From IMG/VR virus record IMGVR_UViG_3300030044_000011: 64,000 nt of DNA. One strand, given 5' to 3'. Under the pieces are notes generated by a model. That model searched no databases and was not told the DNA's origin. It saw only the letters and a list, made by a program, of their open reading frames with translations. Position numbers and translations under genes: made by a program. This document shows, piece by piece, positions 327-46,861 of the stretch. Positions within the stretch are counted from its first letter, which is position 1, and every line of letters starts with the position of its first letter. The DNA is from a virus.

Positions 327-450
327 TCTTGTTGTGTGGACTTTGCCTACCACACAGATTTCATTTCCTCTGCTCACAATACATCGAACAGAAGTGGCGT
401 TCATCAAACGCCGTACTCGTTGTGAAGGGCTGCTTGCAGGTCAGGCTCAG

Positions 451-723: not shown

Positions 724-854
724 ATCCTACCTCTCAGCGAGATAGTCGCTTTAATTAAGCTACCACGGTCAAACTTTGAAGGCCGTCTGATGGATTACTC
801 TACCATCAACCATCGCATTACCGACGCGGCGGGTAGGTGCGCTGAACAACGGCC

Positions 855-938
855 TTACTTGGTACAATCCTTCGCGTGTTGAGTACGCTTCCTCTTAGAG
901 GGTACTTTCTTTCCGCAAAAACCGCAAGTGTACTTCAT
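855..938 (-). CDS. small C2HC zinc-finger-like peptide (MKYTCGFCGKKVPSKRKRTQHAKDCTK)
   Basis: Manual translation; AAGGA RBS; CxxC...HxxxC. Confidence 0.5.
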   Translation of the reverse strand: MKYTCGFCGKKVPSKRKRTQHAKDCTK

Positions 939-962
939 CACGCTTCCTTCTCAAATCAAACT

Positions 963-1039
963 TGGGCGCGGGGGCTGGATTCGAACCAGCGACCTGAAGG
1001 TTATGGGCCTTCCGAGCTACCAGACTGCTCCACCCCGCA
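963..1039 (-). tRNA. tRNA-Met(CAT), fMet-like D arm
   Basis: GCGGGGTGGAGCAGTCTGGTAGCTCG; arm GAAGG-CCCATAA-CCTTC; TTCGAAT; CCA. Confidence 0.9.
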
Positions 1040-1199
1040 TATCCGGGTTCGACATTAGTCTACCCGGCTCAGAGACTTGCCTCGAATACCGCTACTTGAT
1101 TTAGCTACACACAGGCCACTAACCCAAGACAGTCGATTTGATACTTCATTCAGAGGGTCGCTCTACACACATAATACTCAAAGTCAGCTAAGTTGGCTA

Positions 1200-1706
1200 C
1201 TAAATTTTTTCGCCCTTAGCTTTCTCTTCTTCTGCTACTTCCTCATTATACTTCAAACGCTGGGCAAGTTCCTTATCCACCCACGCAATTTCCTGTGGAA
1301 ATTCTTTAAATTGTTTACGAGCCTCAGCGAGTGTCATCTTCCAAATCGGTTGAACCGTACCAACCCCACCGACATCCTTGTTCTTCCAAACCCACTGGCA
1401 GAAGGGGCTTTCTACCCAACAATGCCAATAGGTTCCTAAATCGTCACCCCAGTAGTCTTCCAACTTACAGGGCTCATCATCCGGTTCGTCTCCCCACTTG
1501 CGTTCCCAATTACAAATGAACTTGGGAAGCTTCACATGTGAGAGCCATTCGCATATGTGGGTGCAACAATCCCACGCAAAAAATTCAAGTGCAAGCCAGT
1601 ACCAAGCACACTCTTCCAAATGGATAGAGATTTCAGTGTCTTCGCCTGTGCCCCCGCCGAGCCAGAGACCTGACCAGCGACGTACTCTCCAGTTGAACAA
1701 CTTCAT
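1200..1706 (-). CDS. hypothetical Trp-rich protein
   Basis: 168-aa ORF, AAAGGA RBS. Confidence 0.7.
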   Translation of the reverse strand: MKLFNWRVRRWSGLWLGGGTGEDTEISIHLEECAWYWLALEFFAWDCCTHICEWLSHVKLPKFICNWERKWGDEPDDEPCKLEDYWGDDLGTYWHCWVESPFCQWVWKNKDVGGVGTVQPIWKMTLAEARKQFKEFPQEIAWVDKELAQRLKYNEEVAEEEKAKGEKI

Positions 1707-1721
1707 GGTTGGTTATTCCTT

Positions 1722-1821
1722 TCGGGGTACATCTTCTTCTCGGCGACTTGAAAGTTGAAAACCTTCCTTCCGATTTTCACCGTCCCGAACGGTACGCTCT
1801 GCCAGACTGAGCTACACCCCG
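1722..1821 (-). pseudogene. tRNA-Pro(CGG)-like RNA with T arm replaced by about 48 nt, no CCA
   Basis: Intact acceptor CGGGGTG/TACCCCG, D arm, and TACCG-TTCGGGA-CGGTG arm. Confidence 0.65.
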
Positions 1822-2030
1822 ATTAACCTCTTCGCATCTTCCGCCGCGTCGATGTCCTCCCAAGCCTTCGCTTGAAAGCAGTCGTCGCAGTCCACCTTCG
1901 TCTCCACAGTGTCAATCTCATGCGTGGTCACCCCTGTGCGGCCACAGTAGGTGACATGCAGCGTGGTGGGCATCCTGTACAGACCCTCGGTCGCCATCCC
2001 TGTGTAACGTTTGCGTGATAGATGCATCAT

Positions 2031-2691
2031 TTACCAAATCCCCCGTACGTAGTTTGAGTACGTCCAAACCTGTCCAGTCACGTGGTCTGTGACCTTCCCA
2101 TCCTGCTCCCGGATAGTGCGGCGTTTATCCCCCCGCTGGCCGGTGCCTATCTGCTGGCGACGGTCGGCTACTTCCTTGCCTACCTTTGCCTCTCGCTCCA
2201 ACGCTTCCAGCTTAGCACTCAGGATGATGAGAGCCAACTCTTTATTACGATACTGACTGCGTTCCGCCTCACAGCGCACCATCAACCCGCTTGGAAGATG
2301 ATGAACCCGAACTGCGGTTTCAACCTTATTGACGTTCTGCCCACCCTTACCACCACTTCGCATTGTGTCCCATTCAAGGTCTTTGGGGTCGATGCTGAAT
2401 GTTGTGGTTACCCTCTCTTCAAAGACGGCTACAGTGATTGTTGATGTCTGGCGTCGGCCTCGTCTTTCGGTCGGCGGGACTCGTTGCCACCGATGACCTC
2501 CAGACTCATTAGCAAAGACCTGCTCAACGTCTTTCCCCGTTACGCGGAATACTGCAATACCGGGTCGCGTCTCAAGAATCTCAACGCTAAAGACCCCTCC
2601 GCTGACCCAGCCTTGCATAAATAGCCAACTGGTCAGCCACTAGAAGCTTGGCGTCATCGCCACCTTCTGCTGCTCGAATTTCAACAATCAT
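2031..2691 (-). CDS. RF1-type peptide chain release factor homolog lacking domain 1, expressed via +1 frameshift at 2587-2592 (about 219 aa)
   Basis: ORF1 MIVEIRAAEGGDDAKLL.. with GGAGG RBS; ORF2 has ESGGHRWQRVPPTE (PxT), GGQ and ERSQ..NK; junction GGAGG-GGT-CTT-TAG-C. Confidence 0.9.
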
Positions 2692-2704
2692 ACTGCCTCC
2701 AAAG

Positions 2705-2781
2705 TGGTTCAGGGAGGTGGACTCGAACCACGCTATTCGTTCGACCTTATGAGGGTGAACGCCATACCATCGGACCCCTGT
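2705..2781 (-). tRNA. atypical tRNA-Met(CAT)-like RNA
   Basis: CTCATAA loop, GTGG-TTCGAGT-CCAC T arm, ACCA end; bulged anticodon stem, weak D arm. Confidence 0.6.
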
Positions 2782-2960
2782 GTAATCTGCATGGCCCCTT
2801 GGCGGGGCCATAAGCGCCCTAGACTTTCGTCCTCGGCACCGTTCGTCGCAACACTCAATAGCGTCCAACTATTGAGCACGGTATCAGCATGACTTAAATC
2901 CAACGCCCTCTGGATGAAGGCTGCACGAATTCAGCGGTCGGTTGCTGGCCTACGTTAAAT

Positions 2961-3038
2961 TGGTCGGGGTGGAGGGATTTGAACCCCCGATACCTTGCTC
3001 CCAAAGCAAGTGCGTTAGCCAGACTACGCTACACCCCG
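2961..3038 (-). tRNA. tRNA-Pro(TGG)
   Basis: Canonical cloverleaf, C1-G72, CCA. Confidence 0.95.
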
Positions 3039-3043
3039 TTGAA

Positions 3044-3152
3044 TTGCTGTGGGACTCAGACTCTAGGTGGGAACGACCCACCGCACTGTACCCCGCTTGA
3101 TAAGCAGTTGGCCGTTACCCTACTGAACCAGCACGCTCAGGCCACACAGCAA
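3044..3152 (-). ncRNA. structured ncRNA with long closing stem and tRNA-like arms (possibly Y-RNA-like)
   Basis: TTGCTGTG/CACAGCAA closing stem; GGTGG-GTCGTTC-CCACC and CTGC-TTATCAA-GCGG hairpins. Confidence 0.45.
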
Positions 3153-3155
3153 ACT

Positions 3156-3232
3156 TGGCCCCCATGGTAGGAGTTGAACCTACATCCCTCGGCCTCAACA
3201 TGCCGGTGCTCTACCGTTGAGCTACATCGGGG
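3156..3232 (-). tRNA. tRNA-Asn(GTT)-like with 8-nt anticodon loop
   Basis: Normal D and T arms, G73, CCA; loop ATGTTGAG; bulged acceptor. Confidence 0.65.
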
Positions 3233-3245
3233 ATAAATCTAAACT

Positions 3246-3322
3246 TGGTCAGCCCGGAGAGATTCGAACTCTCGACCCCACCCACCCCAAGGGTGTGCGC
3301 TACCAGACTGCGCTACGGGCTG
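3246..3322 (-). tRNA. tRNA-Pro(GGG)
   Basis: CACCC-TTGGGGT-GGGTG; CCA. Confidence 0.95.
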
Positions 3323-3345
3323 AAACTCTACAATACTACAAAACT

Positions 3346-3422
3346 TGGTCAGGGTGAGAGGATTTGAACCTCCGACTTCTCGTATCCGAAACGAGGACTC
3401 TACCAGACTGAGCTACACCCTG
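3346..3422 (-). tRNA. tRNA-Pro(CGG)
   Basis: CTCGT-TTCGGAT-ACGAG; CCA. Confidence 0.93.
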
Positions 3423-3434
3423 ATGGTAAAAACT

Positions 3435-3522
3435 TGGTCGGGGTGAAGGGACTCGAACCCTCAGTGCGCTTAAGCTCCTGTTTCCAAAACAGGTCGGCTA
3501 CCATCTACCGATTTACACCCCG
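3435..3522 (-). tRNA. tRNA-Pro(TGG) with long variable arm
   Basis: CCTGT-TTTGGAA-ACAGG; 14-nt variable region; CCA. Confidence 0.85.
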
Positions 3523-3553: not shown

Positions 3554-3743
3554 CACCGGGGATGAGAAAGTGGAAATTAGGGAAGTTGGAAATCAACCCT
3601 TCATCACATCCCGGCGTGGCCGCACGGGATGCTGAGGTCTCTAGTGGACTTCAGTCCCGTGCAACATAGGGCACGGTCGAAACGAACGGGTTGGTCGTGT
3701 GAAACTCATATATACATAATACACAGAAAGTCGGTAAGTTCAA
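3554..3743 (-). promoter_or_regulatory. promoter and putative attenuator of the Pro/Met tRNA array
   Basis: TTGAAC-16-TATTAT; alternative pairings 1:2, 2:3, 3:4, 4:5. Confidence 0.65.
3641..3709 (-). CDS. leader peptide MSFTRPTRSFRPCPMLHGTEVH
   Basis: ATG 6 nt after the -10 box (leaderless); Pro codons CCA, CCG, CCT. Confidence 0.65.
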   Translation of the reverse strand: MSFTRPTRSFRPCPMLHGTEVH

Positions 3744-8705: not shown

Positions 8706-8793
8706 TGGTACCCGACCCCGGACTCGAACCGGGAACCGCATTTCGCTTCTCGGGAGTTTAAGCCCCGCGCCTTTGCCATTTGACCAGTCGGGC
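8706..8793 (-). tRNA. tRNA-Leu(TAA)
   Basis: CGGGG-CTTAAAC-TCCCG; long V arm; CCA. Confidence 0.92.
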
Positions 8794-8800
8794 ATAACTT

Positions 8801-8889
8801 TGGTCGGGAAGGTGGGACTTGAACCCACAACCGTTTCACACTTATCGAGTGTTTGAGACTCGCGCCTTTGCCAATTTGACCACATCCCG
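8801..8889 (-). tRNA. tRNA-Leu(CAA)
   Basis: CGAGT-CTCAAAC-ACTCG; long V arm; CCA. Confidence 0.88.
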
Positions 8890-9005
8890 ATTTGAAACTA
8901 TTGGAGACCAGTTACTCAATCGCCTTGGCGTGTATCTCGCCTACCACAGCTTTCGCCAGTCATACGGGGATCAGCGTACGTCCGTTTCACAGACTTATCC
9001 AAATT

Positions 9006-9092
9006 TGGTGCGCCCGAAGGGACTCGAACCCATACCCCCTTGCGGGGATTAGCACCTCAAGCTAACGCGGCTACCAATTACGCCACGGGCGC
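9006..9092 (-). tRNA. tRNA-Leu(GAG)
   Basis: TTAGC-TTGAGGT-GCTAA; CCA. Confidence 0.93.
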
Positions 9093-9153
9093 AAACTTCT
9101 ACTACAACAAAACTTGGTGCTTCACATTCTTACCACAAGTGCCTGTGCCAGAA

Positions 9154-9231
9154 TGGTAGCCGAGGTGGGATTCGAACCCACACTGTACGGATTTTGAGAC
9201 CGTTGCCTCCTGCCAGTTGCGCTACTCGGCC
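9154..9231 (-). tRNA. tRNA-Leu(CAA), short variable arm
   Basis: ACGGT-CTCAAAA-TCCGT; CCA. Confidence 0.9.
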
Positions 9232-9246
9232 ATTACATCAAAACTT

Positions 9247-9330
9247 TGGTAGCCCCACTCGGACTCGAACCGAGACGCCTTTCGACATTAGTTCCTAAGA
9301 CTAACGTGTCTGCCATTCCACCATGGGGCC
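9247..9330 (-). tRNA. tRNA-Leu(TAG)
   Basis: TTAGT-CTTAGGA-ACTAA; CCA. Confidence 0.93.
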
Positions 9331-9338
9331 GTTAAAAC

Positions 9339-9569
9339 CTATCGCTCCGTACGCTGCGTCTTCGGAAGGTCGAGACCCCAGCCACGCTGGATATTCTCGG
9401 AGTCCTGACGCATGTACACAGCCGCAACTTTCCATTCACCACTCTCGGGCTCATCCTTCAGGGTGATAACAGAGCCGCGCTTCACACCTCGGTTAGCGGG
9501 AACCCACGCCACCTTACAGTGAATACCGCGTTCTGACTCTTGCTGCAACATTGTTTGAACTAATTCCAT
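9339..9569 (-). CDS. hypothetical protein
   Basis: 76-aa ORF filling the gap between tRNAs. Confidence 0.6.
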   Translation of the reverse strand: MELVQTMLQQESERGIHCKVAWVPANRGVKRGSVITLKDEPESGEWKVAAVYMRQDSENIQRGWGLDLPKTQRTER

Positions 9570-9586
9570 TTCTTTCTCTTTCTTTA

Positions 9587-9674
9587 TGGTGCCCGGAGAG
9601 GGATTCGAACCCCCACGAGAATTAACCCACTGGCTTCTAAGACCAGCGCGTCTCGCCAATTTCGCCATCCGGGC
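9587..9674 (-). tRNA. tRNA-Leu(TAG)
   Basis: CTGGT-CTTAGAA-GCCAG; CCA. Confidence 0.93.
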
Positions 9675-9679
9675 ACATC

Positions 9680-10318
9680 TTAAATTCGACCCCTTCTCCA
9701 TCCAATCAAAACGTAAGAGGTCAAATCGTTTTGCTTAATCTTGATGGCTCTTTCACCGTCCGTTACCCAACGAGTACCGAACTGTGAATTCTTATCCCCC
9801 GCTCTATTCACCAATGCCATCTTTGCTTTGGTGTCCGCCCTGTGCTTCCGACCAGTCCAAGTGCGTTTACTCGCCGCTGAAATCTTAGCTGACACATCCG
9901 GTTCAACACCATGTTCCCTAATCTGGTTGGCCCGAGCCTCACTCATCATCTTGTAATGCTGTGGGTCTCGATGACTCTGAGAACTGTGTGACACTCTGGC
10001 GGCATTGGCGTAGTCGGCCAACCCTTCTCGATTGATATAGTCAAACCCACCAGAGCCCCCTTTTCTCAAATTCATACAGAGAGGGTTACCCCGCCAACAT
10101 TGAATCAACTCATCCTCTTTGCCAAATGCTGATTCAACATCGAGGTAGATGAACAGGACTTCCTTATGGAAGTTTTGTTCCCCATATTTTGCAACGGCTC
10201 GTTTGATGTATGTACCGGAACCGAGGTACGCATCATCAGGGTCTTTCGTTTTGTGAACCCCGAAGTAGAACTTGCCGTTGAGCAGGTTGACGGTTTTGTA
10301 AACCGTGTAGTATGTCAT
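9680..10318 (-). CDS. GIY-YIG (Seg-like) homing endonuclease
   Basis: VYKTVNLLNGKFYFGVH, YLGSG, NLRKGGSGG, NUMOD3-like tail. Confidence 0.85.
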   Translation of the reverse strand: MTYYTVYKTVNLLNGKFYFGVHKTKDPDDAYLGSGTYIKRAVAKYGEQNFHKEVLFIYLDVESAFGKEDELIQCWRGNPLCMNLRKGGSGGFDYINREGLADYANAARVSHSSQSHRDPQHYKMMSEARANQIREHGVEPDVSAKISAASKRTWTGRKHRADTKAKMALVNRAGDKNSQFGTRWVTDGERAIKIKQNDLTSYVLIGWRRGRI

Positions 10319-10363
10319 GAACCTATCAGTGCCCTCTACATAAGATACTGATAATCACGAATG

Positions 10364-10448
10364 TGCATGGAGTAGGATTTGAACCTACGTAGCCCCAAGG
10401 GGCGGGTGTTTTACAGACACCTAGTTTTAACCACTCACTCATCCATGC
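10364..10448 (-). tRNA. tRNA-Tyr(GTA), CCA not encoded
   Basis: GGTGT-CTGTAAA-ACACC; long V arm. Confidence 0.9.
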
Positions 10449-10455
10449 AAACTTT

Positions 10456-10548
10456 TGGTGCGTCCGACAGGATTTGAACCTGTTGTGTTTACCGCTTGGG
10501 TGCCGAGTTTACAGCCCGGTGCCACTCCCCCGTCGTGACCGCGAACGC
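10456..10548 (-). tRNA. tRNA-Tyr(GTA)
   Basis: CCGGG-CTGTAAA-CTCGG; long V arm; CCA. Confidence 0.88.
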
Positions 10549-10719: not shown

Positions 10720-10750
10720 AAAAACAAAAGCCGCCCCAATCGGGCGGCTT
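10720..10750 (-). terminator. attenuator terminator upstream of the Leu/Tyr array
   Basis: AAGCCGCCC-GATT-GGGGCGGCTT-TTGTTTTT. Confidence 0.9.
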
Positions 10751-10774
10751 CGTGATTCATCTGAACTTTGGGGT

Positions 10775-10867
10775 TTAGATTGAGCCCCCTTCAGACGACA
10801 CGAAGCCGTTGCTAAGCAGGTAATACAAGCTTAGGCTAAGGTTCGAGTTGACTGATAAGCGGTTCAT
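10775..10867 (-). CDS. leader peptide MNRLSVNSNLSLSLYYLLSNGFVSSEGGSI
   Basis: GAGGAAG RBS; promoter TTGAAA-16-TATTAT at 10908-10935; overlaps antiterminator. Confidence 0.8.
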   Translation of the reverse strand: MNRLSVNSNLSLSLYYLLSNGFVSSEGGSI

Positions 10868-11006
10868 ATTCTTCCTCTCGGGCAGTGCCCGTTTCACATC
10901 TGTATACATAATACCGCGAAAGTTGAGGTTTTCAACACTGTTTTTGAATTTATTTTCATAGCTTATGGATTTTTCACTTTCCACCTCCTCTGTAGGAGGG
11001 TTTGAC

Positions 11007-11750
11007 ATGCCAAATCCAAATGTGAAACTCGGTCGCAAAGCCGTTAAGACCGACTCAAGAACTTTGAAGCTTTCCCCTTATATGAAGATGTTACCCCCGC
11101 CCCCGGCCTCTGTGGACTGGACGAAGGGGAACACCTCGTGGGGGATGATGCTGAATGACACCCTTGGTTGCTGCACCATTGCCGGAGCCGCGCACGCTAT
11201 TCAAGTGTGGAGCACTGAAACCGGCAGTGAAGTTACCGTACCTGATTCTACTGTACTTCAATATTATGAGCAGTGGGATGGGTATGTAAACGGCAACCCG
11301 TCAACCGACAACGGGGGTGTCGAACTCGATGTTCTCAATAAATGGAAGTCACAGGGGCTCCTCGGTCACAAGTTAGTGGCCTTTGCTGATCCACAGGTTC
11401 GCAACCACACAGAGATTATGCAAGCAATCAACCTCTTCGGTGGTGTTTACATCGGGATGCAAGTTCCCAACTACATCATCAACAACATCCCGGCTCTGTG
11501 GCAGATTGCGACCGCAGGACAGGACACTGGCATTGATGGTGGGCACTGTGTGTTTGTCTGTGGTTATGATGCAGTGGGGGTATCCTTCATCTCGTGGGGA
11601 CAGGTCTACAAGATGACATGGGCCTACTGGGATGTGTATGTGGATGAGGCACACGCCCTACTCTCGCAGGACTGGATAAACTCCAAGGGAGTTGATGTCC
11701 AAGGCTTCGACCTTGCACAACTGCAAACTGACTTATCTCAAATCAGCTAA
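11007..11750 (+). CDS. papain-like cysteine peptidase
   Basis: NDTLGCCTIAG, GGHCV, SWG; AGGAGG RBS. Confidence 0.75.
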   Translation: MPNPNVKLGRKAVKTDSRTLKLSPYMKMLPPPPASVDWTKGNTSWGMMLNDTLGCCTIAGAAHAIQVWSTETGSEVTVPDSTVLQYYEQWDGYVNGNPSTDNGGVELDVLNKWKSQGLLGHKLVAFADPQVRNHTEIMQAINLFGGVYIGMQVPNYIINNIPALWQIATAGQDTGIDGGHCVFVCGYDAVGVSFISWGQVYKMTWAYWDVYVDEAHALLSQDWINSKGVDVQGFDLAQLQTDLSQIS

Positions 11751-38350: not shown

Positions 38351-39308
38351 TCACCGCCCGGTTGATAGAGTGGAATCTCTGGCAGTAGCTTTGTGGGAGC
38401 CGACTTCACCTTCTTGACCGCTGCTTTCTTAGGGGATTTCGGCGGAGCCGCAGGAATTGGTGCAGCCCACAACTTCTCAAGAAGGGGTGTTGCCCGACGA
38501 ATGAACTTCGCCCGGATACGCTTGCGGTGCTCTCTCCACTTCTTGAGACCGGCTTCGTTGTCTTTCCTGAGATAAGGTGCCCCGTACTTCGCCACATTCT
38601 TGTGGTGTTTTTCCAATATTTGTGAGGCTACTTGGTCGCCCAACTTCATGGCGAATCCTTTGGGAGTTGTATACTTCGTGCCATAATAGGTGACGGTCGT
38701 AAGTTTTTCGATTTTGATGTTCGACCACTCGTTGAAGAAGGCCATTAGCTCACCACCAGCTTACGGGACGGTATCACCATAGGAAGGGCACCTTCAAATA
38801 GCCGCAACGCCTCCTTGGTGCCTTCAGGGCTCCGGGGGATGAAGTGCTCGTACGTACCCCAACCGTTGGGAGCATTGAACGCTTCGAACCGGGGACGGTC
38901 ACCCTTCATCAAGGCAAGTCCGGTGGTGAGCGGCTCGATTAGTTCCTTAGCCTTGGTGATGCCAAGCCGCTCTGGACGCCATAGGTGCTGGTAGATGCCA
39001 GCTTCCATCGCCATCTTGTTCAAGTTGTGGGTGATGTTCTGGTCGAAGACTACATCGGTTTCGGCGGACTTGCCGGTGCCGTCGCAATCGGGGCAGTTCT
39101 TGCAACGTTCGCAGGGAACCTCACGAGGCTCACCCTGTACTAGCCCCACATCTAGGCTCATGTCGTACCTTCTTTCTTCAATACTCGTAATCCGCCGCCA
39201 CATAACAACTCTTCTGATTGTTACCCCCGTCCACGCGGTTCACTCTTGAAAGGATAGCTGCCTTTAGGCCAACCTCCCCAATCAGGTACTCTTCTAATAC
39301 TCAGAATT

Positions 39309-39384
39309 TGGTGTCGCCGATGGGAATCGAACCCACCATCATCTGATTGAAAGTCAGAGGTCCAGACCGATAGACGGCGGCGAC
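39309..39384 (-). tRNA. tRNA-Glu(TTC)
   Basis: TCTGA-CTTTCAA-TCAGA; CCA. Confidence 0.93.
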
Positions 39385-39438
39385 AAACTTAAATCCGGGT
39401 GCCTTACGTTGACTCCTCGATACACGAAACTCATAACT

Positions 39439-39553
39439 TGGTGCCGGGGTAGGTATCGAAGCCTACAAACTCACAAAACCCGTTCGCATAAACGGGCATA
39501 CTTTGTGATGCCTATGGATGCCTCCAGCGAATCTACCAATTCTTCCACCCGGC
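39439..39553 (-). ncRNA. 115-nt tRNA-like RNA with greatly extended central arm
   Basis: GCCGGG/CCCGGC-ACCA; D-loop AATTGGTAGA; T arm GTAGG-CTTCGATA-CCTAC. Confidence 0.6.
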
Positions 39554-39559
39554 GTAGCT

Positions 39560-39635
39560 TGGTGCCCTCGGTAGGAATCGAACCTACGACTTCTTCCGTG
39601 TGAAGGAAGCACTCGTACCGCTGAGTTACGAGGGC
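39560..39635 (-). tRNA. tRNA-Val(CAC)
   Basis: CTTCC-TTCACAC-GGAAG; CCA. Confidence 0.93.
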
Positions 39636-39832
39636 GAAACTTATTCTCAAGGAGGGGCATCGAACCCCCATCTCCGCCACGAACGGGCGGTGTCCTTACC
39701 GCTTGTCACTCCGACATCAGAGGCTATTACTAGCTTGGTGCTGACGGAACCCAGTTACATGCTGCTCAGTATATCGACAGCGGAGCAACATTTACCCGTC
39801 ATTGCTCTGCCATGTTAGACGACCTTGAAACT

Positions 39833-39907
39833 TGGTAGCCCTAGAGGGAGTCGAACCCTCATTCTCACCTTGAAAGGGTGCCTTCCTAGCCGTTAGAAGA
39901 TAGGGCC
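39833..39907 (-). tRNA. tRNA-Glu(TTC)
   Basis: CACC-CTTTCAA-GGTG; CCA. Confidence 0.93.
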
Positions 39908-39927
39908 ATAAACTACCACCGATTACT

Positions 39928-40003
39928 TGGACGCGGAGACGAGGATTTAACTCGTGTCTCAACCTTTGCAGGGTCGCGCCTGATTCGCCTCGGCCACTCC
40001 GCA
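39928..40003 (-). tRNA. tRNA-Cys(GCA), atypical T-loop
   Basis: CGACC-CTGCAAA-GGTTG; U73; CCA. Confidence 0.85.
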
Positions 40004-40340
40004 TTAAAAACTCTTGCTTCTGCTGGCACACAGGCCGCACAAAGGTGCTTTGCCTCGTGCTTGAAACTCTGTCCCGACCCCGTCTCGAAAACTACAGTGA
40101 AGCCAATATCATCGAAGTGTGGGCACTCTGGTATACCTTCCAACTTGCAGAACTCCGATAGTTCATAAGCCATCACCATCGTGATCCTCAGGGTGGTAAG
40201 CATCCCACACTTTCAATACCGCAATCAAAACAAAAATACCAATCAAAACGAAAAAAGTTCCAACATCAACGTGCCCGGTGAAACCATACTCGGGAGTCCA
40301 TGGTGCTTGCATAGTAGACCTCTACTATGCTTCTCATATT

Positions 40341-40415
40341 TGGTAGCCCTACGGGGTGTCGAACCCCGGTTGTCAGGTTGAGAACCTGCTTTCCTAACCG
40401 CTAGAAGATAGGGCC
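40341..40415 (-). tRNA. tRNA-Glu(CTC)
   Basis: CAGG-TTCTCAA-CCTG; CCA. Confidence 0.93.
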
Positions 40416-40429
40416 AAACTACAAACTAG

Positions 40430-40513
40430 TGACGAGTGAAGGATTCGAACCTTCGTTCCCGCCCTTCGCATAAAGCTACTAAGCGAGTTTTTAGGCCACT
40501 AAAGTAACCCGTC
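40430..40513 (-). ncRNA. tRNA-like RNA with expanded anticodon loop
   Basis: GACGGGT/ACTCGTC acceptor; canonical T arm; no 7-nt anticodon loop. Confidence 0.6.
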
Positions 40514-40517
40514 AAAC

Positions 40518-40566
40518 TGGAGCCGAGGGGGCGTGGTTATCCGCCACGGGATTTCCCTTACTCGGC
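40518..40566 (-). ncRNA. 49-nt T-armless mini-tRNA-like RNA (GAT loop)
   Basis: GCCGAG/CTCGGC-TCCA; CGTGG-CGGATAA-CCACG. Confidence 0.5.
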
Positions 40567-40798
40567 ATAAACTCGATTAACTGCGTCCGTCTTCACTTTA
40601 CTAGCCACCCGCCAAGGTCATGGTTGGGGAAGCAACTTTCGCTAGAGCTATCTTGGTGACCCCTACTCTTCCTTTCGGTACCATGGGTATGGGTCAGAGC
40701 CCATAAATCACCGCAGCCTTCACAGCGTGACAAAGCGACTTGCCACTTACGCACTAAGATACACCGTGTTCTGTAATCACACTATGCACTGTGAAACT

Positions 40799-40831
40799 TG
40801 GTGGATGTGACAGGAGTCGAGCTACACACCC
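40799..40831 (-). ncRNA. 33-nt Ala-identity minihelix
   Basis: GGGTGTG/CACATCC-ACCA with G3:U70. Confidence 0.5.
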
Positions 40832-41396
40832 AAAACCTCTTCTACCGCTTCATCAACGGTGGCGATGGCAATCACTTTGCCAGTTTCTGTCGTTCTCGGC
40901 CACCGTAGTTTACCTATGCATTCATCACCCTTATACACGCAGATACTGTACTTCCCGCTTCTCTCACCATCGTTCTCACATAGTGATAAAGTCGGGTCTT
41001 TCGAAATTGCAATTACTGCGTCAATAAAAGTCATTCACCCTCATCCACCAACTCAACCAAGAGTTGTATAGCTTCAATCTCGCGGTCTCCAACCTGTGAG
41101 ACCTTACCTGTTACTGTGTCCGTGACCTTGAGCGGCCATTGCTTTGCCTTGATGTCGGCGATGCTGACAGTCGGACAGCTTACTAACGTGAACTCAGGTA
41201 CACTATACTTCATTCAATCCACACTTCTCACAAAGGTCAGGGTCGTCTTCATCGCTGAGTGGTGCCTTACAACTCAAGCACCGCTTGTATGTGTCGGGCT
41301 CTTCCAACCCCGCGTACCACGGACTGCAAATACATTCACCCACACAAACATCGTTTTCGCAAACCGCGTTGAACTTCATCTCTTCCTAACTATTCA

Positions 41397-41500
41397 TGCA
41401 ACAGGTGGGATTCGAACCCACGGCGTCCATAACAATCCGCCAGCGATATAGGCCCTTAACCATGAGACGTGGAATGCTCTACCAACTGAGCTACCATTGC
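41397..41500 (-). ncRNA. tRNA-like RNA with insertion in the anticodon region
   Basis: Canonical D arm and T arm; TCCA/TGGA enclose about 40 nt. Confidence 0.65.
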
Positions 41501-41600
41501 ACAAACTTGGTGGACGCAGGGGACTTGGCACCCCATCGCTCGGCGTTACCACTATGGACGCCCACATTTCAATTCCTTAAGCCGAGTTCCGGACTTAACT

Positions 41601-41679
41601 TGGTGGAGCTATGGGGACTCGAACCCCACTGGATTCCTCATTGCGAATGAGGTGAACACCCCCGGCATTCCCTAGCCCC
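41601..41679 (-). tRNA. tRNA-Ala(CGC)
   Basis: CCTCA-TTCGCAA-TGAGG; G3:U70; CCA. Confidence 0.9.
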
Positions 41680-41763
41680 AAACTTTCGGGAGGAGAGGTT
41701 CTACGCATCTCACACGTTGAGAGCAAATCCCCTCTATCTCCCTGCATCTGTCAGACTGTCGTG

Positions 41764-41831
41764 TAGACACGGAGAGATTCGAACTCTCATTTCCCCTCGA
41801 TAGGGGCGTCCTACCATTAGACGACGAGCCT
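41764..41831 (-). pseudogene. tRNA-like gene with shortened anticodon loop
   Basis: Glu/Gln-like D arm; CCCCT-ATCG-AGGGG; normal T arm. Confidence 0.6.
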
Positions 41832-42439
41832 CAGCCCGACAAACCCTTAACCCAAACACTTACCGAACTCTTTGCAACCCCGAGTAAAGCTGCGATTTGG
41901 GCTTTACAAATTCCTTGTTCAAACAACTCCTGCGCTTTCATTCGTTCAACCGCTTTTATATTTCTCAACCTTGCGGCGGCGGAGCCTATCGCTGATAATC
42001 CTCTTTGCTTTGCCATCTCCGATGACCCACGAGCGCCACTACGATTGAAATTGTTGCGAATCATATCCCGATAGTTAGCGTCTGTCTTCCAACGCTCCGC
42101 GCTGTTAGTCCTATTGGCCGCTCGAACCCTCCACCCTTGGTTGGGTTGCTGATTTATCCAGTCGAAGCCACCACTCCCACCTTGTCTCAGGTTGTAGCAC
42201 AAAGGGTCGGCTCGATACGTTTCAATCAGTTCGTATTCTTTAGCAAATGCCTCCCCTGAGTTGTCGAAGATGAAGCACACGTTCTTTATGAACGACTGCT
42301 CACCGTGCTTACGAATCGCCGCCTTCAGAACCTTACCTGACCCAAGGTACCCGTCGTACGGGTTCTTGGTTTTGTGGACGCCGAAGTAATACTTTCCGTT
42401 CACCAAATTCTGTGTTCGATACACTGTGTAAAATATCAT
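41831..42439 (-). CDS. GIY-YIG (Seg-like) homing endonuclease with C-terminal HTH
   Basis: Paralog of 9680..10318; KAQIAALLGVAKSSVSVW. Confidence 0.85.
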   Translation of the reverse strand: MIFYTVYRTQNLVNGKYYFGVHKTKNPYDGYLGSGKVLKAAIRKHGEQSFIKNVCFIFDNSGEAFAKEYELIETYRADPLCYNLRQGGSGGFDWINQQPNQGWRVRAANRTNSAERWKTDANYRDMIRNNFNRSGARGSSEMAKQRGLSAIGSAAARLRNIKAVERMKAQELFEQGICKAQIAALLGVAKSSVSVWVKGLSG

Positions 42440-42505
42440 GAACCTATCAGCCTCTCAGGTTTCTGAGGACTTAACCTCTACTAAAGAGGTTGATAGTCAC
42501 GAATG

Positions 42506-42578
42506 TGCGCCTTGTAGGAATCGAACCTACGGTCCCTTCCATGTCAAGGAAGTGCTCTAGCCGCTGAGCCAAAGGCGC
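42506..42578 (-). tRNA. tRNA-Val(GAC), CCA not encoded
   Basis: CTTCC-TTGACAT-GGAAG. Confidence 0.9.
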
Positions 42579-42652
42579 AAAACTAGTTAGCGGCTGCAAG
42601 CGCGTCCGTCCTGCATTTAATCCCTAAACCTGAGGGAACCACACTTTAAAGT

Positions 42653-42729
42653 TGGCGGGGACGACGGGGCTCGAACCCGCGACCTCTACCGTGACAGGGT
42701 AGCGTTCTAACCAACTGAACTACATCCCC
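42653..42729 (-). tRNA. tRNA-Asp(GTC)
   Basis: CTACC-CTGTCAC-GGTAG; G73; CCA. Confidence 0.95.
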
Positions 42730-42739
42730 AACTTCAAAC

Positions 42740-42814
42740 TGGCGGAGACGGCGAGGGTTGAACTCGTATATTCTTCCGTGACAGGGAAGCCCATTGCCAT
42801 TATGGTACGTCTCC
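42740..42814 (-). tRNA. tRNA-Asp(GTC)
   Basis: TTCC-CTGTCAC-GGAA; G73; CCA. Confidence 0.9.
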
Positions 42815-42908
42815 TCAAGGGTGTGTTCCGCAGCTTTTAGTTCTCACTGCAAGCCCTAAGCCCGTGCGCCTTTGTGCGGTACGACGTTAGGTGCTACCCT
42901 TTGAAACT

Positions 42909-42984
42909 TGGCGGGGCTGATGGGACTCTAACCCACGATAGACGGCTCGACAAGCCGCTGCATTAGACGCTATGCTACAACCCC
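42909..42984 (-). tRNA. tRNA-Asp(GTC)
   Basis: GCGGC-TTGTCGA-GCCGT; G73; CCA. Confidence 0.85.
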
Positions 42985-43178
42985 TTGGTGGACGTGTCGT
43001 GCCGCTTACGCTGTCATTTAACGACCGGGTACCTCATCTCTCTAATTACGAGTGTGCTGTTCAACTGCACACACCCATACGATTTGAGCTACCACAACAG
43101 TGTCGTTCAGTAGAGCCATTTGGCTGGATTGTTCATACCCGAAGGGAACTCTCCGGCATCACATCCTCTACTAAAATT

Positions 43179-43253
43179 TGGTGGACCTAGAGGGGATTGA
43201 ACCCTCGACTTCTTCCATGCCATGGAAGCACTCTCCCACTGAGTTACAGGCCC
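43179..43253 (-). tRNA. tRNA-Ala(GGC)
   Basis: CTTCC-ATGGCAT-GGAAG; G3:U70; CCA. Confidence 0.92.
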
Positions 43254-43261
43254 CTAAAACA

Positions 43262-43471
43262 TCAAAACCTTTTGCCACTGTTCAGCATATTTATCCTTTC
43301 TAATACCGAGGGCTCCGTCAACAGCAGACGTAAATTCTCATTCGGCTGTGTTGGCCTTTCCAACATTGCAACAAACTCTTGCCACTGCTCAGGACTGAGG
43401 CGAATGTTGTTCTCTTCACCAGCCAGTCGGGTATGAACGCTTCTCATGTCGGCATCGAAGTTAATCTTCAT
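43262..43471 (-). CDS. TacA/DUF1778-like antitoxin C-terminal domain protein (69 aa)
   Basis: AAAGGAG RBS; IRLSPEQWQEFVAMLERPTQPNENLRLLL. Confidence 0.75.
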   Translation of the reverse strand: MKINFDADMRSVHTRLAGEENNIRLSPEQWQEFVAMLERPTQPNENLRLLLTEPSVLERINMLNSGKRF

Positions 43472-43487
43472 CGCTCTCCTTTCAAAT

Positions 43488-43563
43488 TGGAGGCGATGAT
43501 GGGATTCGAACCCATGCATAACGGTTTTGCAGACCGCCGCGTTAACCACTTCGCCACATCGCC
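43488..43563 (-). tRNA. tRNA-Cys(GCA)
   Basis: CTGCAAA loop; U73; CCA. Confidence 0.95.
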
Positions 43564-43581
43564 TATAACACCAACAAAACT

Positions 43582-43655
43582 TGGAGCGGATAGTCAGATT
43601 TGAACTGACGGTGACAGGGTGGAAGCCTGTTGCCTTACCGCTTGGCTATACCCGC
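43582..43655 (-). tRNA. tRNA-Gly(TCC)
   Basis: ACAGG-CTTCCAC-CCTGT; U73; CCA. Confidence 0.93.
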
Positions 43656-43881
43656 TTTGAATCAGAGATATTTTCGTACCTCCAGTGGTCCGAATCGGTA
43701 GCTCTCATATGAGCTACATCCCCACATAAGAGAACTGTTCAATCGGAAGGTCTTTCCAAAAGACCAACTCCGCCACCAGAAATAGTACCTCCACATATCT
43801 CCTCAATTTCTCGACGCCTCTCCGCCGTGCCACACCACTTTAGTCCGCAGGACTCGGTAGGTGTCACCCCGCTTAAAACTC

Positions 43882-44277
43882 TGCACTAGACTTATAGCCG
43901 GAGTTCTGTCCAGAGGGTTACCCCTCCTGTACAATCATTCGTCTCGGCCAGCCGTTACCGTCTGGCTCTAGCCCCCAACCCGCCGATTCATAACGGTACG
44001 AGCAGTACCTGTCGGCCTATTTGAGGTTGCACCGCGTAGAGATTGCCCGTTTCACCCGAATTTAATCGGCTCGTCTCTGTTGCTCTAATCGTCACACTCA
44101 ACATCGGACGGGTTGTTCCCATAGGGTTGGTGGAAATCAACCAGACGTATAGCTGCGTCCCCTTACGCTACGTCCCCGAACAAGTGTGCTAGGGTGTTAC
44201 CCTATACGCTGCTCTGTGGTGCTCCGAACTTCCTCGAAGTGGTATTGCGCCACGTCGCGATTGTCCAGTCTAGTGCA
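43882..44277 (-). ncRNA. rnpB: RNase P RNA
   Basis: P1 TGCACTAGACT/AGTCTAGTGCA; GAGGAAGTTCGGAGC and ACAGAACTCCGGCTAT (P4); GCAACAGAGA, GGGTGAAACGG. Confidence 0.92.
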
Positions 44278-44304
44278 TACTTAATGAAACCGAGGCCGAA
44301 GCTG

Positions 44305-44649
44305 TTACTGTACTGCCGACGTGCGCTGTACTGCCACGCTACGAAGGTAAGCACGCATCTCGTCCGAGAACTCATTGAACATCTCACCCTTATCCAACCA
44401 GTGCAAAATGGTCTCCCAGTTCTCTTCCTCAGGCGTCCACTGACCCTCCAAGCCGTAGCAAGAGCAGTGACCGCCACTTACTGAGAACAGCTTCCCGTCC
44501 TTCTCGAACAGAACGAATGCCGAACCCGAATAGTCCTCGTAGCTATACACCGCTGCGTAGACCAACGCATCCTTCAATTCATCCTGACCAATATTGAACT
44601 GGTCGCATACATCCTCAACGCTGCCGAACCTATCTACAAATACTTCCAT
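44305..44649 (-). CDS. conserved phage hypothetical protein
   Basis: AAGGAG RBS; YEDYSG..GGHCSCYGLEGQW. Confidence 0.75.
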   Translation of the reverse strand: MEVFVDRFGSVEDVCDQFNIGQDELKDALVYAAVYSYEDYSGSAFVLFEKDGKLFSVSGGHCSCYGLEGQWTPEEENWETILHWLDKGEMFNEFSDEMRAYLRSVAVQRTSAVQ

Positions 44650-44718
44650 CGTTTTCTCCTTGTGGTACAAACCATCGAGAGAAACGGTGAGGTAATTGTT
44701 CGACCTCGGTTTCAAATT

Positions 44719-44797
44719 TGGTGGACCGTCAGAGATTTGAACTCTGCTGATATTCTGTGTGCAAGACAGATAAACACTCCTAGCATTTCCACGGCCC
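44719..44797 (-). tRNA. tRNA-Ala(TGC)
   Basis: TCTGT-CTTGCAC-ACAGA; G3:U70; CCA. Confidence 0.9.
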
Positions 44798-44934
44798 AAT
44801 ATTGTCAAACATCATGTAATCACCGGCTGGCCGGGATTAAAAATCTTGGTGGCTTTGGCTCACGCCGGGGCACCACCCGCGCCCCTCGAAGTAAACTTAC
44901 CCAGTCTTGTGGACTGGAGTCTTGCTCCAGAGCT

Positions 44935-45009
44935 TGGAGCGGCTGGTGGGATTCGAACCCACGACCTCTTCCTTGGCAAGGAAGCGTTCTACCACTGAAC
45001 TACAGCCGC
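44935..45009 (-). tRNA. tRNA-Gly(GCC)
   Basis: Canonical; TTGCCAA loop; CCA. Confidence 0.96.
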
Positions 45010-45039
45010 ATATACTTCAATACTGCAAAAACCAAAACT

Positions 45040-45115
45040 TGGTGCTCCAAGTGGGACTCGAACCCACGATAGTCTGCTTGTAGGGCAGATGATTTAGCCG
45101 CTAATCTACCGGAGC
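45040..45115 (-). tRNA. tRNA-Val(TAC)
   Basis: TCTGC-CCTACAA-GCAGA; CCA. Confidence 0.92.
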
Positions 45116-45127
45116 AATCTTTACTGC

Positions 45128-45159
45128 AAAAACGAAAGGCCAGCCTTTTCGGCTGGCCT
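45128..45159 (-). terminator. attenuator terminator upstream of the GNN/Cys array
   Basis: AGGCCAGCC-GAAAA-GGCTGGCCT-TTCGTTTTT. Confidence 0.9.
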
Positions 45160-45179
45160 CGGTTTCGATTTCAGACTGG

Positions 45180-45323
45180 TTAGTTAGTCTTAATCTCTCC
45201 CGAGGCCATGGTATCCTCTCCCGCGCAACCGGCTTCAGCGGCTGCGACAGCTACGACTACGCCCACGACGCCAGTGTTCGGTGCGTCCATGGTGTTAATC
45301 GAAATGTTGGTACGGATAGTCAT
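45180..45323 (-). CDS. leader peptide MTIRTNISINTMDAPNTGVVGVVVAVAAAEAGCAGEDTMASGEIKTN
   Basis: AAGGA RBS; promoter TTGCAC-18-TATTAT at 45344-45373; overlaps antiterminator. Confidence 0.85.
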   Translation of the reverse strand: MTIRTNISINTMDAPNTGVVGVVVAVAAAEAGCAGEDTMASGEIKTN

Positions 45324-45402
45324 GGTGTTTGTCCTTCTGTTACATAATACGCAGAAAGTTGAAATTTGTGCAAGCTGTTTTTCATTTATTTTCACAGCTT
45401 AT

Positions 45403-45434
45403 GTTTCAACCCACGCACCTGTACAAGGTGAAAT
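45403..45434 (-). repeat. solitary type I-C CRISPR-repeat-like unit
   Basis: ATTTCACCTTGTACAGGTGCGTGGGTTGAAAC (32 nt, hairpin plus TTGAAAC end); single copy. Confidence 0.5.
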
Positions 45435-46216
45435 TCCTCGGTGTGCTGCCTGTGTTGCACCACCCAAACTCGGCTTGACGTTAGTCTGGAACCGGACCAT
45501 CGAACCCGGTATCTCCGAGGAACCCATAAACTGAGAGTACCACCACCCCGTTGTGGAAATCAACCCCCATGTGCCTTACGATAACCATCGGCTATCGAAT
45601 TCAACAATGAAATGGATTGGCCTTTTGTCTCCACTTTCACTTTCCGGGTTCGAGGTTCCCGCCTGCAAACGATACTTCACCCTCGAATACCCCGCCAGTT
45701 GCTTCCCAAGAAGTATCACCTCATTCATAATACACAATTCAGAGGTGCTAACACAACCAAATTTGAAAACTCCCGAGGGAGGGACGGTTCAGTCAGGTTT
45801 ATCTGTGCCGTCCAATCCTTCCCGAAACCCTTGCGGGTTTGCGTACCTGACGAATTAAATCCATAGTACACCAACGAGGAAGAAACCGCAACTACCTGCC
45901 ATTTTTGATGACGTTTATCCATCCCTGTGTTTGCTCACTTACAGTAGGTGTGGGTTTTACCGTCTTGCGGGTTCGAGGCTTGGAAGTCTCGAACCGCTCG
46001 GTCTCCGCAGCGTACCGCACTAGAGCTTGCCGCAGATTCATAGCAGCCTCGTAACCCTCCAGTGCAGACTCACAGCCTTGGCACCGCCCTATAATGGCAC
46101 CACGGCCATGTGCAGGGTTGTAGCGTGGGTGCTTGGGACACCGCAGTGTCAGTTTGCTCTTGGATACAGTCTTCAGCCGCAGCTTGGTGGCGTCGTCAAA
46201 GCAGAACTTCAACATG

Positions 46217-46861
46217 TCATCTCTCCTGTTGTTTGCAGTCGCAGTCTTCTTCGCAGGGTTCCATACTCAGTTGATACGCATCAATGGACTCCCGCACATC
46301 TTGTGTTCCCCAACAAATGTAGCTATGGGCTCCATTACCCAAGTGATGCCCCTCTTTGGCGAATAGCTCATACTCACCAGCACCAAGGTCCACCAGCGTG
46401 AACCCATACTTCATCGCCAGTTCAATAATCGTCAACTCGACCGGCGGACGCTTTGTGGTCGTCTTGGGTGTTGTCGGCTCCAGTGGAAAGTCAGCACCCC
46501 AAGCGAAAATCTGCTTGTACTTGCCGGGGTAGCGGCGATAGCGGGGGTGGTTCCGCATCTTGTCGTGGTCTACCCCACGAGTGTGGGCTAATTCGTGAGC
46601 AATGACAAAAGCAAAGTCCACCTTATCCGGGTTGTGTTTGCTTACCCGAACACACATGGAGTTTGACCGAAGCGTGGCGTACCCTGAGCTACTACCAGTA
46701 CTATTGCGGGTGTATACTACCCGCACATGAAGAGCCGGGGCTCCCCGTTTACACAAGTCAGGCCGCTCATCCTTTGCCACATGTGCGATGAAGGCTTTGA
46801 TATGGTCTGACCGCCAATGCGTTTTGTTGTTCAGTTCGATTCGCATGTCTTTATTATACAC
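46217..46861 (-). CDS. zincin metallopeptidase-like protein
   Basis: HELAH..G..H. Confidence 0.65.
   Translation of the reverse strand: MYNKDMRIELNNKTHWRSDHIKAFIAHVAKDERPDLCKRGAPALHVRVVYTRNSTGSSSGYATLRSNSMCVRVSKHNPDKVDFAFVIAHELAHTRGVDHDKMRNHPRYRRYPGKYKQIFAWGADFPLEPTTPKTTTKRPPVELTIIELAMKYGFTLVDLGAGEYELFAKEGHHLGNGAHSYICWGTQDVRESIDAYQLSMEPCEEDCDCKQQER

Follow-up and report, generated by a model that had tools for sequence, protein, structure and literature searches.

How does a phage decide when to transcribe its own tRNA genes? The question is raised by a 64,000-nucleotide (nt) stretch of IMG/VR virus record IMGVR_UViG_3300030044_000011 (hereafter the window), which comes from a 310,335-bp contig of an uncultured phage and in which a short open reading frame (ORF) and an intrinsic terminator stand between a promoter and a long array of tRNA genes. 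I propose that these elements form a ribosome-mediated (leader-peptide) transcription attenuator controlling an operon of phage tRNA genes and an RNase P RNA gene, a reading that, from the sequence, I hold to be correct with a probability of about 0.75. On this reading, the tRNAs of the array are probably made only when the codons that they read are decoded slowly.

A leader ORF whose codons match the downstream tRNA array

The leader and the array that it precedes comprise the following elements:

45344-45373, minus strand: sigma-70-like promoter found by promoter scan, with a -35 box TTGCAC (45373-45368), an 18-nt spacer and a -10 box TATTAT (45349-45344).
3713-3730, 10905-10922 and 45341-45358: copies of the promoter core CTTTCnnnGTATTATGTA.
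45332-45337, minus strand: Shine-Dalgarno (SD) sequence GAAGGA, 8 nt before the ATG.
45180-45323, minus strand: leader ORF of 47 sense codons plus TAA (ATG 45323-45321, TAA 45182-45180), encoding the peptide MTIRTNISINTMDAPNTGVVGVVVAVAAAEAGCAGEDTMASGEIKTN.
45213-45272, minus strand: control block, codons 18-37, with 19 GNN codons (Gly, Val, Ala, Glu, Asp) and one Cys codon (TGC).
39309-45115, minus strand: putatively regulated array decoding only Val, Gly, Ala, Cys, Asp and Glu, with 17 ARAGORN tRNAs, two extra Rfam tRNA matches and short ORFs.
43879-44276, minus strand: bacterial class A RNase P RNA gene inside the array (Rfam, 162.5 bits, full length).

The promoter is part of a repeated phage core, of which the window holds three copies against 0.1 expected, every one of them upstream of a tRNA array. 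Besides 45373-45344, the promoter scan found no promoter-like site close by on the minus strand.

An earlier note on this DNA (hereafter the original prediction) had described leader codons 18-37 as 19 GNN codons plus one Cys codon, and all 20 are exactly as it claimed. GNN and Cys codons make up 34.8% of the codons in the long ORFs of the window, which gives a 20/20 block a probability of 7e-10. In a survey of 127,884 20-codon windows in six frames, where 8.7e-5 such blocks were expected, the leader alone reached 20/20, the runner-up among 1,040 ORFs being at 16/20. ARAGORN also agrees with the original prediction on the canonical tRNAs encoded downstream: Val (tac, gac, cac), Ala (tgc, ggc, cgc), Gly (gcc, tcc), Asp (three gtc), Glu (two ttc, one ctc) and Cys (two gca); an 85-nt Ala(agc) is a further call by the same program. 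The first gene, tRNA-Val(tac), begins 12 nt past the U tract of the terminator. The amino acids of the control block are identical to the set decoded by this array, and the same holds in those relatives that have complete arrays. The match between leader and array is therefore strong at the level of amino acids.

The RNase P RNA gene follows tRNA-Ala(tgc), a place that it keeps in the related contigs L004 (13294-13619), L019 (12274-12644) and L021 (1272-1646), with scores across the window and its relatives of 141-185 bits. Given its position, RNase P RNA would be co-regulated with the tRNAs of the array. I know of no described case of a phage-encoded RNase P RNA.

Two mutually exclusive helices between the leader and the array

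What follows the control block can be folded in two ways. The helices concerned, and two others that involve the leader, are:

45200-45208, minus strand: antiterminator arm 2, UGGCCUCGG, containing GGCCUCGG, from folds.
45154-45162, minus strand: antiterminator arm 3, CCGAGGCCA, of which GAGGCCA is common to the terminator 5' arm.
45180-45182, minus strand: stop codon TAA in the apical loop of the antiterminator, from folds.
45128-45160, minus strand: intrinsic terminator with a 10-bp GC-rich stem GAGGCCAGCC/GGCUGGCCUU, loop GAAAA and U tract UUUCGUUUUU, -21 kcal/mol.
45314-45325, minus strand: start-codon helix, 5' strand CCAUGacUAUCC, which covers the start codon and pairs with 45216-45206 in the RNAalifold consensus and in single folds.
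45206-45216, minus strand: start-codon helix, 3' strand GGAUAcCAUGG, directly 5' of arm 2 and within the invariant core TGCGCGGGAGAGGRTACCATG.
45225-45245, minus strand: in-block hairpin GCAGCCG-CUGAAGC-CGGUUGC, from single folds and RNAalifold.

According to the original prediction, a segment adjacent to the block pairs with one that overlaps the 5' arm of the terminator, the stop codon lying in the loop. Both statements proved accurate. GGCCTCGG (45207-45200) and CCGAGGCC (45162-45155) are complementary, and the second of them overlaps GAGGCCAGCC (45160-45151), the 5' arm of the terminator; the 3' arm (arm 4), GGCTGGCCTT, spans 45145-45136 and the U tract, TTTCGTTTTT, runs to 45128. Folding places the TAA in the apical loop of the antiterminator. 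The minimum-energy fold of the naked RNA consists of the antiterminator and a residual 4-5 bp stub, and since naked RNA favours the antiterminator, the default state of the switch without translation would be ON. Neither the single folds nor the RNAalifold consensus revealed a segment that pairs with arm 2, that is, a 1:2 protector.

The start-codon helix covaries, UAUCC/GGAUA in the window being replaced by CUACC/GGUAG in L004 and L018. This helix would perhaps shut the initiation site once the leader has been transcribed, thereby limiting translation to the pioneer ribosome. The in-block hairpin does not compete with arm 2 and is a candidate RNA polymerase pause hairpin; its sequence is identical in seven of nine homologs, so that it shows no covariation.

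Conservation of the leader and covariation of the switch in related contigs

Relatives of this locus were reached in two ways: via homologs of the SprT-like protein encoded upstream of the leader (46217-46861) and the contigs that encode them, and via the invariant 21-nt core TGCGCGGGAGAGGRTACCATG. The SprT-like homologs are 42-63% identical and reside on contigs of up to 435 kb, which are syntenic with the window and carry homologous leaders ahead of tRNA-Val(tac). The core scan matched three IMG/VR and six JGI metagenome contigs, and in all of them the core lies in frame within such a leader. A search with the SprT-like protein for related loci on viral contigs found none. A scan of IMG/VR with a promoter-core pattern returned a single match, unrelated and due to chance, and over the relatives' records a promoter pattern that was too strict recovered only the site of L009 itself.

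Nine distinct GNN leaders, of 40-47 codons, are available. All have an SD sequence (AAGGA- or GAGNG-type purine tracts occupy its position in the homologs), an alignable promoter of the same type, and a GNN block with a Cys codon (two in L020), and in all nine homologs tRNA-Val(tac) follows the leader by about 20-70 nt. The indels in the coding part measure 3, 15, 3 and 3 nt, so that the frame is kept, and public gene callers call the ORF in five loci (L002, L004, L018, L019 and L020). The complete or near-complete arrays of L004, L019, L008 and L021 contain 14-17 tRNAs, the canonical ones being solely Val, Ala, Gly, Asp, Glu and Cys tRNAs; the marginal ARAGORN exceptions are an unassigned tRNA in L004 and a selenocysteine (SeC)(tca)-like call past the end of the array in L008.

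All nine homologs fold into an antiterminator (-25 to -34 kcal/mol) and a terminator (-16 to -25 kcal/mol) that have 5-7 nt in common. The inner stems of the antiterminator differ wholly in sequence between lineages, and yet the hairpin is preserved; moreover, the stop codon is in or touches the hairpin apex in 12 of 12 leaders, the nine GNN leaders and three of the other families described below. Because the MAFFT alignment of the switch shifted arm 2 and arm 4 by 1-2 nt, arm partners were tabulated from per-sequence folds. At offset -1 of arm 3, the outer pair of the antiterminator, C, A or U faces G, U or G in arm 2, and at terminator offset 7, G, A or C faces C, U or G in arm 4. In L019, the G>A substitution at shared position 3 of arm 3 comes with a C>U change in each of its two partners, that of arm 2 and that of arm 4, as expected if selection acts on both of the mutually exclusive helices. 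The promoter, the ORF, the codon block and the two exclusive helices with their covariation are thus established by the sequence and its comparison with relatives.

An additional structured region lies next to the leader in two of these contigs. Immediately before its leader promoter, L002 (11150-11300, plus strand) carries the phage promoter once more (…GGTATTATGTAAA), here driving a short hairpin-rich non-coding stretch, and the equivalent place in the window (about 45400-45560, minus strand) is structured and bears a GGTTCGAT T-loop-like motif.

Other leaders matched to other arrays

The window contains 31 tRNA genes according to ARAGORN, all on the minus strand and grouped by amino acid. 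Besides the GNN/Cys array, they form two groups:

250-3519, minus strand: Met and Pro tRNAs (ARAGORN).
8706-10448, minus strand: six Leu tRNAs and Tyr tRNA (ARAGORN).

Behind the promoter core copy at 10905-10922 lies an SD-led 30-codon ORF (10867-10775, minus strand; peptide MNRLSVNSNLSLSLYYLLSNGFVSSEGGSI) that contains the Leu codons TTA, CTT, CTA, TTG, CTG and CTT and the Tyr codons TAT and TAC, so that Leu or Tyr accounts for 8 of the 16 core codons (P = 2e-4); Leu and Tyr codons are absent from the GNN leader. Beyond the ORF lies an antiterminator/terminator pair designed in the same way (the cassette spans 10720-10935, minus strand), and then come two Tyr and six Leu tRNAs. A degenerate DNA pattern for this leader gave no match; a homolog in the related contig L023 (2740-2930, minus strand; MNRLSNNSNLSLSLYYLLSDGSVSDGLHE) was found via the neighbouring 247-aa protein. 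Over the first 21 codons, the two leaders differ by six synonymous changes (including AGC>TCC, both Ser) and two nonsynonymous ones, and in L023 the hairpin is rebuilt from different sequence. That the peptide is kept while its synonymous codons are shuffled indicates that the leader is translated. Leu codons seem, anecdotally, to track isoacceptors: the window has TTA and a Leu(taa), L023 three CTG, no TTA and two Leu(cag)-type tRNAs.

Two other observations concern this array. A GIY-YIG-type ORF (YTVYKTVNLLNGKFYFGVHKT...), likely a homing endonuclease inside the array, lies between the Tyr and Leu tRNAs (window 9680-10318, minus strand) and is kept in L023 (about 1844-2482, minus strand). 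In addition, ARAGORN and Rfam miss a further gene of the window that resembles tRNA-Tyr(gta) and is irregular in its D region (10440-10530, minus strand); its counterpart in L023 (2619-2712, minus strand) is called.

A third family is found in L017 (relative G001; the IMG/VR contig of L007), where an SD-led ORF, MRLTNQTRITTTTQTSVLRPRVFVRI, is preceded by the same type of promoter and a long structured 5' untranslated region (UTR). It contains seven Thr codons, all four kinds being used, two Ile codons and two Gln codons, that is, 11 of 25 codons (P = 7e-4). The stop codon is in the hairpin apex and is followed by a terminator and then by two Ile, five Thr and two Gln tRNAs. The 5' UTR itself (L017 6230-6400, minus strand) harbours four tandem hairpins with near-identical GGGAAACCTT-type loops.

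The remaining promoter core copy of the window (3713-3730, in region 3554-3743, minus strand) stands ahead of the Pro tRNAs and has only a weak candidate leader: a leaderless ORF, MSFTRPTRSFRPCPMLHGTEVH, which starts 6 nt past the -10 box and contains three Pro codons (CCA, CCG, CCT). No clear U-tract terminator follows this candidate ORF. The 5' end of a tRNA-Pro is partly duplicated at about 3540-3520.

A model for control of the array

The attenuator put forward by the original prediction is strongly supported by the conserved ORF, by the covarying antiterminator and terminator, by the apex stop codon in every one of the 12 leaders and by the two further leader families that match their arrays. 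How stalling would lead to read-through, what the signal would be and how feedback would arise I infer from these elements as follows. Transcription would start at the strong, conserved phage promoter, and the first ribosome would translate the 47-codon leader, whose middle 20 codons would require tRNAs of exactly the kinds that the array encodes. When decoding is fast, the ribosome would run through arm 2 and come to rest on the apical stop codon of the antiterminator, where it would cover the inner stems, between arms 2 and 3; arm 3, being free, would pair with arm 4, and transcription would terminate at about 45128, 12 nt ahead of the first tRNA. Conversely, slow decoding of any codon of the block, which scarcity of the charged tRNA could cause (for instance because the host pool matches poorly, because the host is shut off or because defences cleave tRNAs), would stall the ribosome upstream of about codon 35. 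Arm 2 would then pair with arm 3, the terminator would be blocked and the array would be transcribed. The new phage tRNAs would relieve the stall and thereby close a negative feedback loop, which should be self-limiting since it would supply the very tRNAs by which the block is decoded, along with RNase P RNA. The limit at codon 35 follows from the coordinates: assuming a standard footprint that extends about 12 nt beyond the A site on the 3' side, a ribosome stalled no further than about that codon would leave arm 2 (45208-45200) free.

Several observations weigh against this model, and some of them point instead to a generic translation-coupled attenuator, that is, a real switch that reports overall translation capacity and in which the GNN/Cys composition is a by-product of RNA-structure constraints or of shared ancestry. 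The array has no tRNA for 21 of the 46 post-initiator sense codons of the leader (Thr 7, Ile 4, Asn 4, Met 2, Ser 2, Arg, Pro, Lys), and the Leu/Tyr leaders keep 7-8 Ser and 4 Asn codons ahead of an array in which no Ser or Asn tRNA is seen; tRNAs for the unmatched codons of the leaders, including Thr, Ile, Asn and Ser, may be encoded elsewhere in the 310-kb genome. Since a 1:2 protector was not found, stalls at unmatched codons should also derepress the array, so that specificity would be partial; for a generic device this simply means that a stall at any of roughly 35 upstream codons gives read-through. The core is conserved in its nucleotides, its synonymous sites being invariant among the homologs, which fits an RNA-level constraint, and codon diversity in the leader equals expectation instead of exceeding it (see below). 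Moreover, roughly 40 nt of the core are identical in seven of the nine homologs, which are therefore not independent observations. Other difficulties concern termination. The U tract UUUCGUUUUU is interrupted, and in L004 and L018 3-4 nt intervene between the stem and the U tract. In naked RNA the antiterminator is stabler than the terminator, so that termination would depend wholly on efficient and tightly coupled translation of the leader. Nevertheless, a generic device accounts poorly for three leader families of different compositions that each match their own array, for Leu/Tyr leaders that keep their amino acids while their nucleotides change, and for a 20/20 block that far exceeds what structure alone requires. 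I consider it unlikely.

The data bear differently on two other explanations. The ORF might encode a hydrophobic micropeptide with a function of its own, such as a membrane peptide, and the hairpins would then represent an ordinary constitutive or leaky terminator; the conserved Val/Ala/Gly-rich core, the conserved Cys and the fact that gene callers predict the ORF as a gene would suit such a peptide. But its C-terminal third varies freely provided that the hairpin is kept, while the synonymous sites of its core are invariant, and peptides of unrelated composition, each matched to its own array, precede the other arrays. When the apical position of the stop codon in all 12 leaders is added, and also the three-way covariation of L019, which supports both mutually exclusive helices, a micropeptide becomes extremely improbable, and a micropeptide gene followed by a plain constitutive terminator was rejected as the main explanation on the strength of covariation, apex stop codons and array-matched leaders. 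The other explanation leaves the switch as it is and changes the signal: starvation for Val, Ala, Gly, Glu, Asp or Cys would be sensed as uncharged tRNA, which would tie the array to the amino-acid status of the host. A stalled ribosome indeed cannot tell a missing tRNA from missing charging, and the known trp, his and ilv attenuators respond to charging. Additional tRNA, however, does not relieve amino-acid starvation, so that the loop would not be homeostatic, and the regulated genes are the exact decoders of the sensed codons plus RNase P RNA, which fits sensing of tRNA supply. Classical amino-acid sensing is thus very unlikely, and the attenuator responding to decoding of its control block remains the explanation that I favour.

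Does the leader distinguish isoacceptors?

The original prediction went further, arguing from the many synonymous codons of the block that the leader senses individual isoacceptors and acts as an OR gate over six amino acids. The first part of this claim is unsupported. When the expectation is conditioned on the peptide and on the nearly uniform codon usage of the phage, the number of distinct GNN/Cys codons is as expected in the four leaders considered (P = 0.33-0.84), and codon diversity is therefore a point against the model. The anticodons of the array find Watson-Crick partners among the codons of the window leader in 13 of 13 cases (P = 0.02); the corresponding values for L004 (10/13), L019 (12/13) and L009 (11/13) are not significant. 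No GGG codon is present in the leaders of the three arrays with a tRNA-Gly(ccc), and GCT occurs in leaders both with and without Ala(agc) in the array. As to the OR gate, multivalent behaviour is automatic in a leader that mixes six amino acids and to that extent the claim stands; a gate operating at the level of isoacceptors is not specifically supported, codon diversity being as expected.

A bolder possibility, which I put forward only tentatively and rather doubt, is that the leaders keep watch on the host tRNA pool with isoacceptor resolution, one tRNA species being monitored by each codon of the block. If so, the loss or cleavage of any single host tRNA would turn on the matching replacement array and RNase P RNA. 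The triggers could be anticodon nucleases, other tRNA-targeting defences or host shut-off, and the arrays would constitute an inducible, self-limiting system of counter-defence and decoding homeostasis, with one sensor per array.

The phage and its relatives

The ORFs of the window are of phage type and include a ribonucleotide reductase (RNR)-like protein, a DnaB-like helicase, RecA, an SLT lysozyme and a 1,118-aa tape-measure-like ORF. Among 50,697 deposited phage records, the region and the leader (megablast, blastn) and the flanking SprT-like protein (tblastn) had no match. In the same set, the DnaB-like protein had only 25%-identical matches, in Tunturiibacter and Microbacterium jumbo phages. 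The window has no close relative among these records. The 247-261-aa protein encoded divergently from the Leu/Tyr leader (window 10965-11750, plus strand) has over 1,200 homologs, one of them, 61% identical, in a Terracidiphilus (Acidobacteria) metagenome-assembled genome. This homolog and the weak DnaB match to a Tunturiibacter jumbo phage hint at an acidobacterial host.

Some tRNA-like sequences are unusual. In the window, odd matches occur at 41764-41831, at 41397-41500 (104 nt, with an insertion) and at 3156-3231 (4-nt anticodon call). Relatives carry suppressor-like tRNAs, namely a cta (amber) tRNA with its own promoter in L017 (7918-7995, minus strand) and a tca (opal; SeC according to ARAGORN) tRNA in L008 (8278-8350, minus strand), which hint at stop-codon read-through or recoding in this phage group.

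Relation to known attenuators and significance

Leader-peptide attenuation has for fifty years been a textbook mode of control of amino-acid biosynthesis, and of pheST. In enterobacterial amino-acid operons, the leaders of ilvGMEDA (Leu/Ile/Val) and thr (Thr/Ile) are multivalent, others being trpL, hisL, leuL and pheL. Like the ilvGMEDA and thr leaders, the phage leader has a promoter-proximal, SD-led mini-ORF with control codons for several amino acids, a terminator before the structural genes and an antiterminator that overlaps the nucleotides of the terminator, the position of the translating ribosome being what would select the helix. It differs from them in being phage-encoded, in targeting tRNAs and RNase P RNA rather than biosynthetic enzymes, and in its 20-codon block over six amino acids, its apex stop codon and its conserved helix sequestering the start codon. 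In contrast to trp- and his-type leaders, no 1:2 protector was found, so that absence of translation should result in read-through and not in super-attenuation. This protector excepted, the defining features of a leader-peptide attenuator that can be read from a sequence, namely the mini-ORF, the control codons, the terminator and the alternative helix, are present, and the spacing that control by a stalled ribosome would require is plausible.

Two known systems act on the translation apparatus. In Escherichia coli, pheST is controlled through its pheM leader, whereby decoding of the cognate codon governs, by leader-peptide attenuation, the expression of a tRNA synthetase. The phage system likewise would place a component of the translation apparatus under leader-peptide control; unlike pheST, a protein-coding aminoacyl-tRNA synthetase operon with a single sensed amino acid and a four-segment layout, its products are tRNAs, and feedback would bear directly on the sensed molecule. 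T-boxes bind uncharged tRNA directly, via the specifier loop and the T-box sequence, and do so independently of translation. They resemble the phage leader in being cis-acting terminator/antiterminator switches that respond to tRNA charging and have translation-related targets, but the phage leader has a conserved translated ORF. Consistently, no match to the T-box family (RF00230) or any other Rfam cis-regulatory family was found in 45125-45400 at E<=1, nor in the homologous loci at gathering score, and none of the Rfam amino-acid leader families (His, Thr, Leu, Trp, Phe and others) matched 39000-45400 at E<=1. Among 8.4 million papers and preprints searched, none was found to describe leader-peptide attenuation acting on tRNA genes, tRNA operons or tRNA arrays. 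What is proposed here is, judged from sequence, a known kind of control applied to a new class of target, an array of tRNA and RNase P RNA genes.

Phage tRNA clusters, such as those of T4, T5, jumbo and huge phages, are thought to offset codon-usage mismatch, host tRNA loss or tRNA-targeting defences. The arrays reported here are sorted by amino acid and have codon-matched putative leader attenuators in front, and neither to my knowledge nor in the literature searched has a case been described of phage tRNA clusters sorted in this way and each gated by such a leader. Leaders of this kind, of at least three types, are present in several related contigs recovered from metagenomes of peat, soil and sediment. 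The cassette measures about 250 nt and relies on a sigma-70-type promoter and an intrinsic terminator, and could therefore be transferred to a reporter construct; compact, programmable, codon-specific sensors for synthetic biology might be built along similar lines. As for the phages themselves, the sensed quantity would be the speed at which a set of codons is decoded, and the products would be the tRNAs that read this set and the RNase P RNA that matures them, an arrangement that makes for a direct feedback loop. If this is true, giant phages gauge translational demand and supply tRNAs on demand, which bears on, and opens to experiment, the question of why phages carry large sets of tRNA genes, be it for codon compensation, for replacement after host tRNA loss or for evasion of tRNA-targeting defences.

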